A stretch of 24,559 bases of DNA, taken from a virus. Below the pieces are notes generated by a model. That model was not told the DNA's origin. It made no database searches and saw only the letters and a list, made by a program, of their open reading frames with translations. The translations under genes and the position numbers were made by a program. The first letter of the stretch is position 1. Each line of letters starts with the position of its first letter. The DNA lies in UHGV virus genome UHGV-0135335; one strand, 5' to 3'. Below are positions 6,138-24,559 of the stretch, piece by piece.

Positions 6138-6485
6138 ATGGCTGGAAAATCTAAAAAAGATGCCGGTGCAGACACCACAACTTCCGTTGATGGTGGTGAT
6201 GCGATTATTGATACCGCCAATATTGTCGACGGTGTGATTTCTGCTGATGCGATCACCGGTGATGAAATTGGGACCGTGGTCCCAGCGGTTAAATCCGCGC
6301 CGGAACGTCGCGCTGTTGTGTTCCTGGGGCCATATCATCGCTATTCGCGCGCTGATGTCGCTGCATTCGATGCTGAATACGCTGAAGAGCTGGTTACGCG
6401 CAAAATTGCAGCCTGGCCAGAAGATGCGAAGCGTGCGTTGAATCCTCGTTGGGGAGACGATGACCATGAAACCGACATTGGATGA
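6138..6485 (+). CDS. Hypothetical acidic protein (Asp/Gly/Ala-rich N-terminus)
   Basis: ATG 6138 with GGAG at 6127-6130. 115 aa. Contains palindrome copy 2 within its coding sequence (EIGTVVPAV). Confidence 0.5.
   Translation: MAGKSKKDAGADTTTSVDGGDAIIDTANIVDGVISADAITGDEIGTVVPAVKSAPERRAVVFLGPYHRYSRADVAAFDAEYAEELVTRKIAAWPEDAKRALNPRWGDDDHETDIG
6269..6284. other. Putative SopB-binding centromere-like palindrome, copy 2 (TGGGACCGTGGTCCCA)
   Basis: 16-bp inverted repeat inside the 6138-6485 ORF. Confidence 0.7.
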
Positions 6486-12786: not shown

Positions 12787-12804
12787 TTGGGACCATGGTC
12801 CCAA
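12787..12804. other. Putative SopB-binding centromere-like palindrome, copy 3 (TTGGGACCATGGTCCCAA, perfect 18-bp palindrome)
   Basis: Intergenic, lying between the moron terminator and the gpL Shine-Dalgarno sequence. Confidence 0.7.
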
Positions 12805-14935: not shown

Positions 14936-17900
14936 ATGGAAATTACAGGCGCAAAAGGTGGCGGCGGCAGCGGAAGTAGCGATAAAGGCGAGAACCGCGG
15001 TACCGAGATCGCTTCAGTTGCTTACATGAAGATATTACTGGCGCTGACCGAGGGGGAAGCCGCCGGCGGATTCTCAGGCCAGGATATTTATCTCGATGGT
15101 ACGCCGCTGCTGGATGATTCCGGGAATGCAAACTTCCCAGGCGTTACCTGGGAATGGCGTAGCGGGACTGTCGACCAGCCATATATTTCCGGCTTTCCTG
15201 CTGTAGAAAATGAAGTGGCCGTTTCTACGGAGCTGAAGTACGGGACGCCGTGGGTTAAGTCGATTAACAACACGCAGCTCTCAGCCGTTCGTCTGCGCCT
15301 GAAATTCCCGAATGGCCTGTATGAACTGCGAGACTCAGGTGGGAAGAGTGGTTATACCGTTGAGTTTGCCATTGATATCTCAACTGATGGCAGTTCCTAT
15401 GTCGAATACGGGCGGGATACCGCAAGCGGTATTGCTAATAACGGCTATGAGCGTAGCTATCGAATTGAGCTGCCACCGGCGCAGACTGGCTGGCAAATTC
15501 GCGTAAGACGCCTTACACCAAACGCCAATGATGCCCGGCACGCCGATACATCCCGGATCGAATCGATAACCGATATCGTTGATGCCAAATTGCGGTATCC
15601 CCATACCTCGCTGCTGTTCGTCCAGTTCGATTCTCAGTTGTTCGATGGTCGTACGCCGACAGTAACGATAAAAATGAAGGGGATCATCGTTCGCGTTCCA
15701 TCGAACTATGACCCGATCAACCGGACGTATAGCGGTACGTGGGACGGGACGTTTAAATGGGCATGGACGAACAACCCGGCCTGGATTTTTTACGACATCG
15801 TGACGAATGCCCGGTACGGCCTTGGTCGCCGCATAACGACAAACCTCGTTGATAAATGGACGCTCTACCAGATTGCTCAGTACTGCGATGCGAAGGTTTC
15901 TGACGGCGCAGGAGGCACAGAAGCGCGTCATCTTTGTGACCTGTACATTTCACAGAGAACCGACGCCTGGACGGTCCTGATGGATTTGGCGGCGATTTTC
16001 AGGGGGATGATCAGCTGGTCGAATAATCTGCTTTCGCTTGATGCCGATATGCCGCGCGAGCTGGACCCGGACTTTGTCTTCAACAAGTCCAATATTGTCG
16101 GTTCGTTCAACTTCTCCAGCTCATCCGAGCGTACCAACTATTCTGCGGCGATAGTGACTTACAGCAACCCGAACAACGGCTACAACGATGATCAGGCCAG
16201 CGTTCACGTACCTGAAGTCTCTTCGCGATTTGGTTTCAATACGATGGAAATGACTGCCGTCGGCTGCACGCGCGAGAGTGAGGCGCAGCGCCGCGGGTTG
16301 TGGGGTATCGAGACGAACCGCGATGATAATGCGGTTGAGTTCAAAACAGGCATGGAAGGCCGTATTCCGAGGGTTGGCAAAGTGATCGGCGTGAATAACG
16401 CACCACTGGCCGGACGGGCGAACGGTGGCCGTGTAGCTGCAGCTGCAGGTACAAAAATCACGCTGGACAGAAATACCGTTGCCGTTCCCGGTAATCGCCT
16501 GATCATCAACCTGCCGACGGGAAAGGCCGAAGGACGAACGATTAAGTCAGTATCTGGCCGCGCGGTCACTGTGGAATCTGCATACAGCGTATTACCTAAC
16601 GCTGAGTCGGCGTGGGTAATTGACCAGCAGGATCTGGCCATCCAGTTATTCAGGGTTCGCCGTGTGGCCATCGGGAGTGATGACCTGGTAACAATATCCG
16701 GGTTGCCCTATAACCCGAACAAATTCGCGAAAATTGATGATGGCGCGATTGTCGAAGACCGTCCTGTGACCGTGGTCCCACCTGGTAGCCAGTCTGTACC
16801 AACGAACATTGAAATCACCAGTGAATACCGAATTGTTCAGGGGATAGGTATAAACACCCTGGTCGCGACATGGGACCCGGTGATAAACGCCATCGCCTAC
16901 GAGGTGCAATGGCGCCAGAATAGCGGCGACTGGATTAATGCAGGCAGGACAGGAAATACCCGAATTGAGGTCGACGGTATTTATGCTGGCCGTTATGTCG
17001 TCCGCGTTCGGGCCATCAACGCGATGGATGTTGCCTCGGTATGGGCAGTATCAAAGGAAGTCCAGCTGGATGGAAAAATCGGAAAGCCGCCCGTTCCTGT
17101 CAATTTGAGAACAACCCCGATGCTATGGGGTATTCGTATTGACTGGTCTATTCCCGCAGGAGCTGAGGACTCGCTCTATACGGAGCTGCAGTATGCGCAG
17201 GAACGCGACGGCAATACGGCGCTATTGCTGAGCAATATTCCATATCCGCAGTCCACATATTCACAGATGGGCCTTCGTGCAGGGCAGGAGTTCTGGTATC
17301 GGGCGCGTCTTATCGACAAGATAGGAAACCCATCGGACTGGACTGGATGGGAGCGCGGTATTTCAAACGATAACTCAGGTGATTATCTGGAGGGGATCGG
17401 TGATGGTTTCCTGACCTCAAAAGACGGTGACGCGTTGACGAGTCAGATTGACCAGAATATCGAGGGGATTCTACAAAATGCGCAGGCGAATAATGCCACC
17501 ATCGATCACCAGTGGAAGCAATATGGAGAGGTTCGCGCTGATATCCTGATTGTCAAAACGACAATTGCCGATGTTGATAAAGCGATGGCCGAGCTATCGA
17601 CGACAGTTCAGGCCCAGGTTGATGATATTACGGCCACGCTGGAAGATAAACTGACAGCGGTTGTCGATGCTGATGGCGCCTCAGCAATTCATACGCTGAA
17701 AGTCGGCGTAAGAATTGGCGACCAATATTATGGTGCGGGGATGTCCGTTGCTGTTATTGCGGATGCTGGTCAGCCAGTAATAACCAGAATTGGATTTAAC
17801 GCAAATCAGTTTGTGCTGATGAGTGGTCTGGACGATAAGCAATATTCACCGTTTGCAGTGATTAACGGTCAGGTATTTATCAGTAGCGCATTTATTCAGG

Positions 17901-20490: not shown

Positions 20491-21672
20491 TCAAAGTATG
20501 TAGCGCTTGTTTATTTCATCGGCAATTTTCTTAATCCGCTCATTTTCAGTAGCTTCATCCTTCAGCACGGTTCTGGCGAACGGGATCAGGGCCAAAATTT
20601 CGTTGGCGGGAATATCGTATTCCAAGCCTGTAGCCGCAGCACGGATGTAGTTGGTCACATCATTAATTTCTAAAAATGCCTCATCCACTGCTTCACCAAC
20701 CGATTTTTGCTGCTCGGCCTGGTGAGCTTCCAGCAGTTCCTCAATCTTCTGTACTAACGCTGGCGGTACGTTGCTCAGTTGGAAGGATACAGAATCCCCC
20801 TTGTACTTCGCTTTTATCCCTTTACCAAACAGGCGTTCACGCATTGCAGGTTTTACTGGTTTTTGCGCCACCTGGTGTAGCTGGTCAAGAATGTCATCGG
20901 TTTCGAGCTGTTCACCAGCACGCTTACGCTTGGCCAGATGCTGAGCAAACGCAAACATCGCCTCTTCATTCTCGGCATAGGCTTTTGCCAGTGCCTCACC
21001 AGCTCGGGCGCTCAGTTCGTTAGGGTTACGGAACAGGCTAATAATTTCGCGTGGTAGCTCTGCCGTCTTCATGCAGCGGACGATAATTTTTCGGGAGATA
21101 TTCTCAGCTTCGGCCAGCTTGCTGACTGTACCGCCGAACTCATTGGCCAGACGGCGAGCATAGCGCTTTCCGCGCTCGTAAGAGCTGGTCTGCCGGTAGT
21201 CGTTCCCGATCTGTGATAGCCAGGCCATTTGTTCGTCGTCCAGCTCGCCGACGAGAACGCGGTATTCAGAGCTGGTGTAAATGGCTGTCTGGCGGCGGCG
21301 GCTACCGTCGGCCACTTCAATAATGCCAGAGATTTTACGGCCAAATGCTGGGTTCTGTTGCCCGGACGCGAGGAATGACGGGATCAGATCATCCAGCGCA
21401 TCTTTTGTCAGCAGTGCCTGGTCTCGTTCATTTCCGCCCCAGACCATGGTCGCCTTTTCCACCATGTTCGCATCGACGGTTTCCAGTTTGAACGACACAT
21501 CCCGCCCACAGACCGGAAGCGTGATATGGTTCCCGGTCATCCCGCGGACGCGTTCACTGAGGTTAGCCACCGCCGGCGCAGCTGGTTTATGCGCGTCATC
21601 ATGGCGTGGGACCGCGGTCACAGTGTCCAGATTGATTTGTGGTGCGTTTTTCATTACTGGTGCGCGTTTCAT
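20491..21672 (-). CDS. sopB: Partition protein SopB (ParB family)
   Basis: From MKRAPV the product aligns closely with F-plasmid SopB as recalled (LPVCGRDV, GNERDQ, DALDDLIPSF, ADGSRRR, YRVLVGELDDEQM, AENISRKII). ATG overlaps the sopA stop (ATGA). About 70 aa longer at the C-terminus than F SopB. Confidence 0.85.
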   Translation of the reverse strand: MKRAPVMKNAPQINLDTVTAVPRHDDAHKPAAPAVANLSERVRGMTGNHITLPVCGRDVSFKLETVDANMVEKATMVWGGNERDQALLTKDALDDLIPSFLASGQQNPAFGRKISGIIEVADGSRRRQTAIYTSSEYRVLVGELDDEQMAWLSQIGNDYRQTSSYERGKRYARRLANEFGGTVSKLAEAENISRKIIVRCMKTAELPREIISLFRNPNELSARAGEALAKAYAENEEAMFAFAQHLAKRKRAGEQLETDDILDQLHQVAQKPVKPAMRERLFGKGIKAKYKGDSVSFQLSNVPPALVQKIEELLEAHQAEQQKSVGEAVDEAFLEINDVTNYIRAAATGLEYDIPANEILALIPFARTVLKDEATENERIKKIADEINKRYIL

Positions 21673-22838
21673 TTGTTGTTCTCCCAGCGAGTAGCAATCA
21701 GGCGATCGTAAATTTCCCGGCAAACCGGCTCCCAGATAGCGACGGCATTGCGCCAGGCGGTAGGCGTGCTACGTTGGTTTGCAGCCTGCTCAAACACGGT
21801 GCGCATGCGTACCTGGCCTTTACCTACTTCGTCTGTTACGCGGACAACTTCCTTCAGCACCATGCCGCCCCAGGCGTTGCGGATCTGCTCATCCATCCAG
21901 GCAGATTGGTTGCCGACGGCTGTGCTGTATTTAGTTACCAGAACGCGGACATCAGGTTCAAAGCCGCCAAGGTCGACGTTGGCCATCAGGTCGCGAAGCA
22001 TCGTGAAGAACTGAAGAGAGGAAACGTAGTCGTACAGTTCAGCTGGTGTAGGCACAACGATCACATCAGCAGCGCATACGACGTTTATTGTGCCTATGCC
22101 GAGGTTTGGGGCGCTATCAATAACAATCAGGTCGTAGCTATCCCAGACAGACTCGATAGCGGCGCGCAGAAGCAGGTGAGATGCCACCGGCAAGCGACCT
22201 TCTTTCTCCAGTACCTCGATCTCTGATTCGATGCGGTGAATGGCCAGACAGGACGGGATGATATCGAGGTTCGGCCAGCAGGTTGGCTTAATCGCGTATT
22301 CAGCGTTATCACGTTCGCCCAGGTAGTACGGCAGCAGCGTATCTTCTGCGTGGATATGCAGATCAGGGACGTAGCCATGGTACAAACTGGCGGTTGCCTG
22401 TGGGTCAGTCGCATCAATCAGCAGAACGCGAAGGCCCTGCAGTGCAGCCCATTGCGCCATATGTACGCTGGTCGACGTTTTGTATGCGCCACCCTTATGC
22501 GCGGCAATAGCCAGTACAACCGGCGATTGGCCTTCAGGTCGAGACGGACGGGTACCAAAGTGATCGCGCATGGAGTTGATTTGCTCGATGGTATAGCCGG
22601 CACGTTGTGGAACGCGACCGCGAGTCACCATATCAGCCGGCGGCAGTCGCCCACCATCTTCTGCATTGCGAATAGATTGCGGTGTAACACCGATCAGCTC
22701 TGCCGCTTCAGTAATGCCCCAGCGGCGAGTGATGGCGCGAGACTCAGGGCTATCATCGCCAAATTGGGCCTGTGCGATAGCCATTGTCATGGCATGGCCA
22801 CGAGAAATCAGTTCATCCAAACGCGATTTTAAATTCAC
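21669..22838 (-). CDS. sopA: Partition ATPase SopA (ParA family, Walker-type)
   Basis: Aligns along its whole length with F SopA as recalled (AAHKGGAYKTSTSVH deviant Walker A, HAEDTLLPYYLGE, VIDSAPNLGIGTINVVCAADV, VFEQA). GTG start at 22838 is preceded by GGAGAG with a 7-nt spacer. The track ORF extends further, to TTG 22913. Confidence 0.85.
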   Translation of the reverse strand: MNLKSRLDELISRGHAMTMAIAQAQFGDDSPESRAITRRWGITEAAELIGVTPQSIRNAEDGGRLPPADMVTRGRVPQRAGYTIEQINSMRDHFGTRPSRPEGQSPVVLAIAAHKGGAYKTSTSVHMAQWAALQGLRVLLIDATDPQATASLYHGYVPDLHIHAEDTLLPYYLGERDNAEYAIKPTCWPNLDIIPSCLAIHRIESEIEVLEKEGRLPVASHLLLRAAIESVWDSYDLIVIDSAPNLGIGTINVVCAADVIVVPTPAELYDYVSSLQFFTMLRDLMANVDLGGFEPDVRVLVTKYSTAVGNQSAWMDEQIRNAWGGMVLKEVVRVTDEVGKGQVRMRTVFEQAANQRSTPTAWRNAVAIWEPVCREIYDRLIATRWENNK

Positions 22839-22856
22839 TTTCGTACTCTCCGGTAA

Positions 22857-22896
22857 CTTTGCGTAAAAACAGTAAAGCACCAAAAAAGACGCAAAG
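22857..22896. promoter_or_regulatory. Putative sopAB promoter/operator: CTTTGCGT ... ACGCAAAG inverted repeat
   Basis: 8-bp perfect inverted repeat with 24-bp spacing, 20-60 bp upstream of the sopA start. The CTTTGC hexamer is recalled as the SopA autoregulatory site in F. Confidence 0.45.
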
Positions 22897-22951
22897 CAAC
22901 ACAATTTATGCAAAATCCCTTAAAAAAAGATTTTCACAATGACAATCACAA

Positions 22952-22990
22952 CCGTACATCATACGGACAAAACATCCGTACAATGTACGG
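22952..22990. promoter_or_regulatory. Paired palindromes CCGTACAtcaTACGG and CCGTACA-A-TGTACGG (putative operator)
   Basis: Two inverted repeats sharing the CCGTACA half-site, 9 bp apart, in the sopA-TA intergenic region. Followed by the direct repeat TTGATTGA (22994-23001 and 23007-23014). Confidence 0.4.
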
Positions 22991-23232
22991 CTTTGATTGA
23001 CAAAAATTGATTGATGTGTGACCATATGAAGGTTGCAACGAGCTTCAAACATGTATTTAGTCAGTAAGCAATCTATTCATTCATTAGTTAAAGTATTGAT
23101 TTATTAAGAAAACAATAGAGGAATATTAAATGATCAGAGGAACAATCAATCGCGGGGCGGGCAGATACCGATGAACAAGATAAGGAGGCAACCCACTTAA
23201 AAACCAATGTTTGATTTTTGGAGATTTTGATT

Positions 23233-23553
23233 ATGAGAAACACCTACGTAAGTGGTGGTTCCGCAAACGTTGCTTTGGCCGGTGCCAAAGACACGCGCGT
23301 CGAGCTGCGAACCAGCGTCGACATAAAAGAGAAGTTACGAGCAGCCGCTTCTCTGGCTGGGGTAGACATGAGTTCGTTTATTTTGATGGCTGCTACACAG
23401 GCGGCACAGCGCGCTATTGATGCAGAACGCATGCGCGTAGTGACCGCAAGCGAGTGGGCACAACTAAATGAAATCCTGAATACCCCTCATCAGCCAGGCG
23501 ATAAGCTGCGAAACCTGATGACGAGGGAACCTAGGTATGAACGAAAGTACTGA
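23233..23553 (+). CDS. Type II antitoxin, DUF1778 / TacA-like (ribbon-helix-helix)
   Basis: 106-aa product with the usual DUF1778 pattern (LR.S...EKL..AA...G...S.FIL.AA). GGAG then ATG 23233. Overlaps the downstream GNAT gene by 17 nt. Confidence 0.7.
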   Translation: MRNTYVSGGSANVALAGAKDTRVELRTSVDIKEKLRAAASLAGVDMSSFILMAATQAAQRAIDAERMRVVTASEWAQLNEILNTPHQPGDKLRNLMTREPRYERKY

Positions 23554-24091
23554 TGTAAAAATGCAGTTGGTGAAGTGCGGCCCAGAAACAGAAATGAAAG
23601 GGGTAAAAGCCTTCGACTGCGGGGATAGTGTAATTAACAAGTTCGTCCCACAGCTAAAGCGGCAGTGTGGTCGTGACAACATCAACGCATTATTACTGCT
23701 TGATGGGGATAAAAACTTAGTAGGTTTTGCCACGGCCACGCTTTATCAGCTGGGGCGGGAGAGCATCCCGGAAGACACTTATCCGTACGCGCTTCCGCCT
23801 GCAATAGCGGTGATGAAAATCCCCATGATTGCCATCGATAAAAAACTACAAAGGCAAGGCTGGGGGCACGATATTTTACGTGCAATTCTTGATTACAGCG
23901 TCGAAAGCGCTGATTTAGTGAGGGGCATCAAAGGGGTTTACCTCGATGCAAAAATAGAGGCTCGATCGTTTTATGAGAGCTTCGAATTTAGGGCTACCAG
24001 CGAAAGTGTTAGCGAGCATGGCACTATCCCAATGCTTATCCCTATGGATATCCTCCGCGAGAGTCAGAAGAGCTGGGAGCAGTCTGCATAA
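23537..24091 (+). CDS. GNAT-family acetyltransferase toxin (TacT/KacT/AtaT-like)
   Basis: 184 aa with an acetyl-CoA-binding-like segment IAIDKKLQRQGWGHDILRAIL. Gene order is antitoxin then overlapping toxin. Confidence 0.7.
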   Translation: MNESTDVKMQLVKCGPETEMKGVKAFDCGDSVINKFVPQLKRQCGRDNINALLLLDGDKNLVGFATATLYQLGRESIPEDTYPYALPPAIAVMKIPMIAIDKKLQRQGWGHDILRAILDYSVESADLVRGIKGVYLDAKIEARSFYESFEFRATSESVSEHGTIPMLIPMDILRESQKSWEQSA

Positions 24092-24121
24092 AAGCGGCTG
24101 ACGCAAAAGCCAGGAATTAAC

Positions 24122-24149
24122 GAAAGAGCCACCTTTGGGTGGCTCTTTC
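24122..24149 (+). terminator. Strong hairpin after toxin gene (terminator-like)
   Basis: GAAAGAGCCACC-tttg-GGTGGCTCTTTC, a 12-bp perfect stem. The T-tract lies partly within the stem. Confidence 0.5.
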
Positions 24150-24261
24150 GGTTCTGGGTAGCCAAATACAACGTACAGCGCGAAGCGCTGTGGAAGCATA
24201 AGATAAATCAAAACAGCACCAAAAGGTGCAATGTTGATATGAGTGGCTAAAAGCGACAATA

Positions 24262-24526
24262 CGTAACATTATGTTTTTAAATAAAAATAATTGAATATCA
24301 CATAAACTTAGTTAAGCGAATTGGCCATCATAACACGCTGATTCAATATCCTCTTTTATTCATTCAATATCGGCTGGAAATACGCCGTCATTAACGTAAC
24401 ATAATACAAATATGAAATAGTGATATTTCAGAATTCAATAACACTTCATATTATTGCATTAAAAAACCCGTCATCTCGCCGCACAACAATCATCGTAACA
24501 AATAATAAATAAATAACATCGTAACA
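24262..24526. repeat. AT-rich non-coding region with CGTAACA x4, CATCGTAACA x2, ATTCAATATC x2 and palindrome TGAAATA-gtga-TATTTCA
   Basis: Direct reading: CGTAACA at 24262, 24395, 24494 and 24520; ATTCAATATC at 24341 and 24363; palindrome at 24413-24430. No ORF of 60 aa or more. Confidence 0.5.
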
Positions 24527-24559
24527 CATTATAAATATCGACACATCATACTAATATCG

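Follow-up and report, generated by a model that had tools for sequence, protein, structure and literature searches.

The palindrome cluster lying between sopA and a toxin-antitoxin gene pair in the viral DNA studied here is very probably the autoregulatory operator of that pair, an operon encoding a ribbon-helix-helix (RHH) antitoxin and a GNAT acetyltransferase toxin. The stretch analyzed (the window) is an entire metagenome contig of 24,559 bp, NODE_343 of ENA ERZ1744281. Comparisons at the level of sequence show that the half-sites of the cluster are identical to those of a crystallized operator, that the antitoxin is homologous to antitoxins of this family, and that the palindrome is inherited together with the cassette. 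The site appears to function like the operators of its family but differs from the KacAT operator in architecture and position, and is best described as a further member rather than a copy.

Two adjacent palindromes upstream of the toxin-antitoxin operon

The sopA start (22838) and the antitoxin ATG (23233) are separated by 394 bp. The original prediction had described two palindromes and a direct repeat in this interval, all of which are present as placed:

22952-22966: imperfect palindrome CCGTACA-tca-TACGG (CCGTACAtcaTACGG / CCGTACATCATACGG), with 2 mismatches to the palindrome consensus; proposed auxiliary operator, O2
22976-22990: perfect 7-1-7 palindrome CCGTACA-A-TGTACGG (CCGTACAaTGTACGG / CCGTACAATGTACGG); proposed primary operator, O1
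22993-23000 and 23007-23014, plus strand: two direct copies of TTGATTGA (repeat family D5)

The O1 palindrome comprises two GTAC-centred subsites, and O1 and O2 are nested in a larger imperfect inverted repeat, whose 28-nt arms (22940-22967 and 22975-23002) show 82% complementarity. Perfect palindromes with 7-nt arms and spacers of 0-4 account for 29 entries in the window, some of them nested, so that a single one is unremarkable; two matches to the palindrome at ≤3 mismatches anywhere in the window also arose in 19 of 100 shuffles. The estimated chance of a second match with ≤2 mismatches within ~100 bp is roughly 3e-4. The significance of the palindromes derives from the adjacency of the two sites and from their recurrence at the same relative place in homologous loci. 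Additional copies of CCGTACA-N-TGTACGG had been proposed as the mark of a functional site, their absence counting against it. No further copy of either palindrome exists elsewhere in the 24.5 kb window, but this is no argument against function, since a self-regulated operon requires just its own operator.

The neighboring genes encode a relative of KacAT and AtaRT

Downstream of the cluster the following features were identified:

23233-23553, plus strand: RHH antitoxin, 106 aa (Pfam TacA1/DUF1778, E = 2e-17), the proposed binder of the palindromes
23537-24091, plus strand: GNAT acetyltransferase toxin, 184 aa (Pfam Acetyltransf_10), a probable co-regulator
24121-24150, plus strand: hairpin after the toxin gene with a 13-bp perfect stem and a 4-nt loop (inverted repeat I1 in the sister contig L045, offset 20353)

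The two genes overlap by 17 nt in the bicistronic arrangement of GNAT/RHH operons. The hairpin lies 30 bp past the toxin stop codon and probably marks where the cassette ends or serves as its terminator; it lacks a clean T-run and was negative in a terminator scan. The antitoxin aligns to AtaR (6AJM_C) and KacA (5ZGN_A), the latter being a distant relative (phmmer E = 6e-7), and the toxin is homologous to the structures of KacT and AtaT.

The operator in the crystal structure of the Klebsiella pneumoniae KacA4KacT2-DNA complex (PDB 5ZGN) reads AAA-TGTACGG-TTATTAA-CCGTACA-TGA (PMC6698736), and its arms, TGTACGG and CCGTACA, are exact 7-mers of the palindrome cluster. Arg8, Asp10 and Arg12 on the beta-ribbon of KacA are reported to read G5, C8 and G10 of TGTACGG, and mutation of Arg8 or Arg12 to abolish DNA binding. 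In the antitoxin described here, Arg22-Val-Glu24-Leu-Arg26 aligns with Arg8-Ile-Asp10-Leu-Arg12 of KacA. Both the half-site and the base-contacting residues of a GNAT/RHH operator system are therefore found in this cassette, with identical 7-mers and a single exchange of Asp10 to Glu. The geometry of the KacAT operator, with inverted arms around an AT-rich 7-bp spacer and a reported position spanning the transcription start site, is not seen in the palindrome.

The palindrome is co-inherited with the cassette

Homologous cassettes for comparison were taken from viral contigs and plasmids. Ten loci share the antitoxin strand R-[VL]-E-[LI]-R and form a clade (the window, L049, L047, L052-L056 and L050/L051). 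All ten carry CCGTACAnTGTACGG with 0-2 mismatches at 215-400 bp upstream of the antitoxin ATG, a match equalled in 0-4 of 2000 shuffles per locus, and an eleventh case, L004, came from an exact-match scan. A toxin-antitoxin operator had originally been discounted here because it would be expected to abut the antitoxin start; the position of the palindrome in these close homologues, together with arms that are the 7-mers bound by KacA, overturns that exclusion. Across the cassettes the central base varies (A, G or T) and the arms are kept, which is the pattern expected of a symmetric protein-binding site. Among the host contexts are IncI plasmids (in the nikB-trbC gap), plasmids of the IncF and IncFII types, one Pantoea plasmid and viral contigs that have no sopA. 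These hosts have nothing else in common with the window; the site thus accompanies the operon across unrelated contexts in every clade locus and in L004. The more distant antitoxins with an R-V-E-L-K strand (L057 and L058) are preceded by GTACGG...CCGTAC with cores 15 bp apart, which is the KacAT arrangement.

The homologous cassettes on enterobacterial plasmids, for example those of Klebsiella oxytoca pKPC-f607 (CP026272), the Escherichia coli IncI plasmid p720632_86 (NZ_CP025846) and Pantoea pROTS050421_B (NZ_CP134730), are annotated only as DUF1778 plus GNAT. In common with the window they have the palindrome, an equally placed TTGAC -35 element, a long leader containing a GGAGG box and an antitoxin of the same clade at 60-73% identity, whereas their host replicons and flanking genes differ from those of the window.

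Alignment of the three closest cassettes (window, L049 and L047) revealed that the left arm of O2 (CCGTACA), both arms of O1 and the TTGACA 6 bp further on are invariant, with the distance between the two CCGTACA copies fixed at 24 bp. The right arm of O2 is specific to the window, and in the more distant cassettes, those of the IncI, IncF and Pantoea plasmids, the main palindrome stands alone and the O2 site is missing. The duplication of TTGATTGA is absent from L049, L047 and L055; these copies are probably incidental rather than a separate binding element.

A scan of viral contigs for exact copies of CCGTACAATGTACGG returned 40 matches, among which only L004 adjoins a homologous toxin-antitoxin pair; the remainder are taken to be chance occurrences. 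The antitoxin query found no matches in a species-genome scan and no relatives above 60% identity in the phage collection, where two short records at 44% were the only hits, and the operator region had no match in complete E. coli genomes. A literature search found no paper on the operator of this antitoxin clade.

Two IMG/VR contigs whose antitoxin is 38% identical (L050, 2245-2345, and L051) carry ~14 tandem copies of the 8-bp CATACGAA directly downstream of the palindrome. In sequence the unit is similar to a degenerate half-site (cf. cATACGG, window positions 22960-22966); the tract may represent a series of weak sites for the antitoxin or be prone to slippage.

The cluster lies at the edge of a cassette inserted beside the sop promoter

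The window begins with terminase genes at its left end, followed by head and tail genes, sopB, sopA, the antitoxin and the toxin, with the partition genes located as follows:

20491-21672, minus strand: sopB
21669-22838, minus strand: sopA

At the DNA level, the 5' end of sopA together with its promoter is matched best by two linear plasmid-prophages, PY54 and vB_YenS-P840; in phiKO2-like Klebsiella phages the match is confined to the sopA 5' end. In PY54, P840 and the phiKO2-like phages a variable gap comes after sopA, and then the telomere site and the protelomerase gene. The sister contig L045 is identical to the window, runs 54 bp further and terminates in AATATACGC-GCGTATATT, a core of the same type as the PY54 telomere palindrome CATACTACGCGCGTAGTATG. 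The gene order, the PY54 and P840 matches and this telomere-type core together identify the window as the cos-to-telomere arm of an N15/PY54-like phage-plasmid.

Homology between the window and the PY54 sop promoter (z = 18) ends, by reading of the sequences, at ~22943, 8 bp before the cluster; to the right of this point, and in the leader, there is no significant similarity to PY54. The palindrome is absent from PY54, P840 and the Salmonella plasmid pSe13, which have homologous sop promoters. That the PY54 homology stops before the cluster indicates that the cluster arrived with the toxin-antitoxin cassette, and the comparative tests assign it to this cassette and not to the sop region or the phage backbone. 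Comparison of the loci shows the putative operator, predicted promoter, leader and both genes to form one mobile cassette, which here occupies the cargo gap that separates the sopAB promoter from the telomere site and is likely to act as a plasmid-addiction module. A homology of the region past the palindrome to the PY54 c4/icd promoter, plausible by eye, was considered and rejected (z = 0.8, not significant).

These results bear on the source of the regulator. The original prediction envisaged a dimeric regulator encoded elsewhere on the element, or control of a divergent promoter; the sites do resemble operators that belong to a promoter control region, but the gene for their regulator most likely lies directly beside them. 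Control of a divergent promoter region by a distant protein of the phage-plasmid, such as a prophage repressor or a product of the right arm, is very unlikely. It would accord with the position of the cluster between two divergent transcription units, with the location of the element's right arm outside the window and with a minus-strand -35-like TTGTCA (22945-22940) that mirrors TTGACA. It would not account for the palindrome accompanying the cassette in IncI, IncF and Pantoea plasmids that have no phage genes, for the homologous sop promoters that lack it, or for the window holding no further copy. With the palindrome in all close homologues and arms of the kind that KacA binds, a regulator encoded elsewhere on the element is unnecessary.

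SopA, SopB and telomere sites lie outside the cluster

The original prediction had held that the palindromes are not explained by the SopA operator, and this is borne out by the location of the SopA hexamers:

22857-22896, minus strand: SopA autoregulatory operator in the sopAB promoter, CTTTGC (22857-22862) and GCAAAG (22891-22896) with GTAAAG between them (inverted repeat I8)

The stretch is homologous to the PY54 spyA promoter with the z of 18 given above. The 28-bp spacing of the CTTTGC/GCAAAG hexamers is that of F ParA and its N15/phiKO2 relatives (PMC8465637). The palindrome cluster contains no such inverted pair of CTTTGC hexamers at 28-bp spacing.

The bound antitoxin-toxin complex might, besides regulating its own operon, modulate the divergent sopAB promoter and so couple partition to addiction, an arrangement that we consider improbable. 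O2 starts only ~55 bp beyond the outermost SopA hexamer (22896 to 22952), and in N15, as reported by Dorokhov and colleagues in 2003, a protein that binds upstream of the main promoter affects sop expression. The juxtaposition nevertheless follows from the insertion of the cassette: the same operator lies beside unrelated genes elsewhere, and its junction with a sop promoter occurs in one lineage only.

Centromere-like boxes are found at other positions in the window. Perfect copies of the F-type SopB box TGGGACCnnGGTCCCA, identical to the core of F sopC, are present at 574-589, 6269-6284 and 12788-12803, and boxes with one mismatch at 16765-16780 and 21607-21622, one of which sits inside the sopA/sopB overlap region; GACCnnGGTC cores number 6 in the window against 0.27 expected. 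N15 has four dispersed centromere boxes with the sequence GTGCGACCnnGGTCGCAC (PMC7205306). The boxes of the element studied here are thus N15-like in their dispersal along the structural-gene arm and F-type in sequence. As a candidate SopB centromere, for which an even-length palindrome of 16-18 bp would be expected, the cluster was rejected because it has no GACC-NN-GGTC core and F-type boxes lie elsewhere.

The telomere likewise lies outside the cluster. Four direct CGTAACA repeats occur at 24262-24526, in the last 300 bp of the window (~2.2 copies expected window-wide), and a fifth copy together with the AATATACGC-GCGTATATT core follows just past the contig end (L045, 4203-4260), where the telomere core TATACGCGCGTATA is located ~45 bp beyond the end of the window. 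Three independent assemblies break within ~55 bp of this same point. The repeats and core fit a hairpin telomere/protelomerase site flanked by binding repeats, as in PY54. A telomere resolution site within the cluster, suggested by its 63-bp composite inverted repeat and the N15-like gene order, was rejected because the TACGCGCGTA-type core lies beyond the window end and the centre of the cluster is not palindromic. The cluster does not match a protelomerase target (telRL of the N15/PY54 type), which would be an even-length palindrome with a TACGCGCGTA core, adjoining the protelomerase gene and flanked by short repeats.

That the cluster is any structural DNA or RNA element, whether a SopB centromere box, part of a protelomerase target, a cruciform or a transcription terminator, is barely credible. 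Both palindromes were flagged as terminator-like hairpins, the telomere is 1.6 kb away and N15-type elements do have dispersed palindromic centromere boxes. Set against this are the TGGGACCnnGGTCCCA boxes and the telomere core at their own positions, an odd-length palindrome whose central base is free and whose stems of 6-7 bp enclose loops of 1-3 nt, features that suit neither a telomere site nor a terminator, and a conservation that tracks the toxin-antitoxin genes rather than sopB or the telomere.

A predicted promoter and a long leader follow the palindrome

Promoters were predicted with a simple position-weight scan of each operator-to-ATG interval. In the window this interval contains the following features:

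22997-23002, plus strand: predicted -35 element TTGACA, 6 bp after O1 and overlapping the first TTGATTGA copy
23020-23025, plus strand: predicted weak -10 element GACCAT, after a 17-nt spacer; predicted start near 23032
23003-23232, plus strand: long AT-rich interval from the -35 element to the antitoxin start; leader predicted from ~23032, ~200 nt
23130-23174, plus strand: short upstream ORF with an AGGA ribosome-binding site and an Arg-rich C-terminus, MIRGTINRGAGRYR
23180-23191, plus strand: Shine-Dalgarno-like box TAAGGAGGCAAC without a start codon

The predicted promoter scores 12.2 in the window, compared with 7.9 for the next best site; a stricter consensus scan does not list a promoter with the GACCAT -10 element. 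The TTGATTGA copies fall in its -35 element and spacer. In all seven loci of the window's subgroup a TTGAC(A/T/C) -35 element begins 14-15 bp past the palindrome centre and is part of the top sigma-70 site, which places the palindrome upstream of the -35 element, at ~-42 to -56 relative to the predicted start and not across the start site. In the second subgroup (L056 and L050) a strong TTGACx-17-TAxxxT promoter lies upstream, with extra GTACGG half-sites upstream of its -35 element, and the palindrome is at the predicted start site; L004, read by eye, has the same layout. Another promoter candidate in the window, TTCACA-18-CATCAT (22933-22962), was rejected, as it is not conserved in the relatives.

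A near-perfect Shine-Dalgarno box, TAAGGAGG(T/C)AAC, is found in the leader ~50 nt upstream of the antitoxin ATG and just past the end of the short ORF, with no start codon 4-12 nt downstream of it. The short ORF and GGAGG box are also present in L049, L047, L052-L056 and L050. The leader sequence is mostly unalignable between cassettes, and the operator-to-ATG length (215-400 bp) and the GGAGG box are kept. Rfam gave no hits in the whole window, and consensus folding of the 3' leader gave no conserved pairs.

Proposed mode of regulation

From these comparisons we infer binding, its stoichiometry, the position of the promoter and transcription start, and the sign of regulation. Antitoxin dimers, probably within the toxin-antitoxin complex, would dock at GTAC-centred subsites by placing their N-terminal beta-ribbon in the major groove. 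The perfect palindrome (22976-22990) has two such subsites and the imperfect one (22952-22966) has one or two that are weaker. On the assumption that the contacts of KacA with G5-G10 define the footprint, the centres of two dimers would be separated by ~9 bp and lie in adjacent major grooves; a dimer spacing of this size is known for other RHH repressors. The predicted promoter just past the perfect palindrome would direct transcription from ~23032, giving a leader of ~200 nt. Occupancy of the operator would then make transcription of the operon depend on the toxin:antitoxin ratio, as in KacAT and AtaRT. By analogy with these systems, the complex is expected to repress the promoter, and an excess of toxin to lift the repression.

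The position of the operator at ~-42 to -56 fits occlusion of the -35/UP region and fits activation equally well. We regard repression as much the likelier sign, and consider it unlikely that the same antitoxin-toxin complex binds here and instead activates the promoter by recruiting RNA polymerase from ~-49. The constant placing of the palindrome centre, ~14 bp before the start of the -35 element in 7/7 loci of the subgroup, would suit an activator, as would the combination of consensus -35 elements with weak -10 hexamers (GACCAT, GAAACT and AAAACT). In addition, the TacAT complex of a K. pneumoniae plasmid is reported to enhance its own promoter via one operator (bioRxiv 10.64898/2026.09.23.753711); that operator, GT..AGCATTTGCT..AC, is however unrelated in sequence. 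The GTAC-type relatives that have been studied, KacAT and AtaRT, are repressors with conditional cooperativity, and in the sister subgroup the palindrome occupies the predicted start site, a repressive position.

On the reading that we prefer, repression by the neighboring complex, the principle of autoregulation is textbook and the main value of the result lies in correct annotation. There is a small chance that the cassette offers more: that the complex activates the promoter, or represses it with a DNA-binding geometry on everted half-sites that is new, and that the leader, 200-400 nt long in this clade, adds a second, translational layer of control of a kind not described for GNAT/RHH modules.

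Comparison with known systems

The 394-bp gap can be read as the junction of a conserved sopAB promoter and an inserted toxin-antitoxin cassette with its own operator and promoter. The distance of the proposed operator from the antitoxin gene (~250 bp) is unusually large for such addiction modules. Toxin-antitoxin operators can therefore sit hundreds of bp from the antitoxin start, and distance alone is no ground for excluding one.

With the linear phage-plasmids of the N15/PY54 type, the element studied here shares dispersed SopB boxes, a SopA-regulated sop promoter and a telomere core of the TACGCGCGTA type flanked by short repeats. The sopA-to-telomere gap was compared between the window (22839-24559), PY54 (L001, 4140-5260) and P840 (L002, 4138-5030). 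PY54 carries a c4/icd-type immunity module in this gap, P840 other short unknown ORFs and the window the toxin-antitoxin cassette, and this difference in cargo from one relative to the next suggests that the gap adjoining the telomere is a cargo hot spot in N15/PY54-like phage-plasmids. In Salmonella pSe13 the gap between the sop promoter and telomere holds a c4/icd-type module, as in PY54.

With kacAT of K. pneumoniae and ataRT of E. coli O157:H7 the cassette shares the type of gene pair, the overlap of the genes, 7-bp arms, an Arg-x-Asp/Glu-x-Arg strand and an operator in the operon's own promoter region. Here the arms are everted around a 1-bp spacer, which sets the GTAC cores 7 bp apart, whereas the KacAT operator has inverted arms, a 7-bp spacer and a distance of 15 bp between cores; the W-shaped hexamer geometry of KacAT thus cannot simply be transferred. 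Further differences from kacAT are the second, weaker site 24 bp upstream of O1 and the location of the proposed operator upstream of the predicted -35 element, ~250 bp before the antitoxin ATG and followed by a long leader, in contrast to an operator across the start site. The antitoxin, at 106 aa, is 18 residues longer than KacA (88 aa). Its N-terminal extension (MRNT...GGS) is an unlikely cause of the 7-1-7 geometry, as a Pantoea homologue without the extension keeps the palindrome. One half-site in two arrangements, 7-1-7 everted and 7-7-7 inverted, in related antitoxins provides a compact test case for how RHH/toxin complexes adapt the geometry of their DNA binding.

Other RHH repressors (omega of pSM19035, MetJ, Arc and CopG) bind heptad or 8-bp arrays as adjacent dimers, with subsites 7-9 bp apart from centre to centre. 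These proteins and the sequences that they recognize are unrelated to the cassette described here, and they have no toxin partner; their subsite spacing nevertheless makes the 7-1-7 arrangement physically plausible for this fold.
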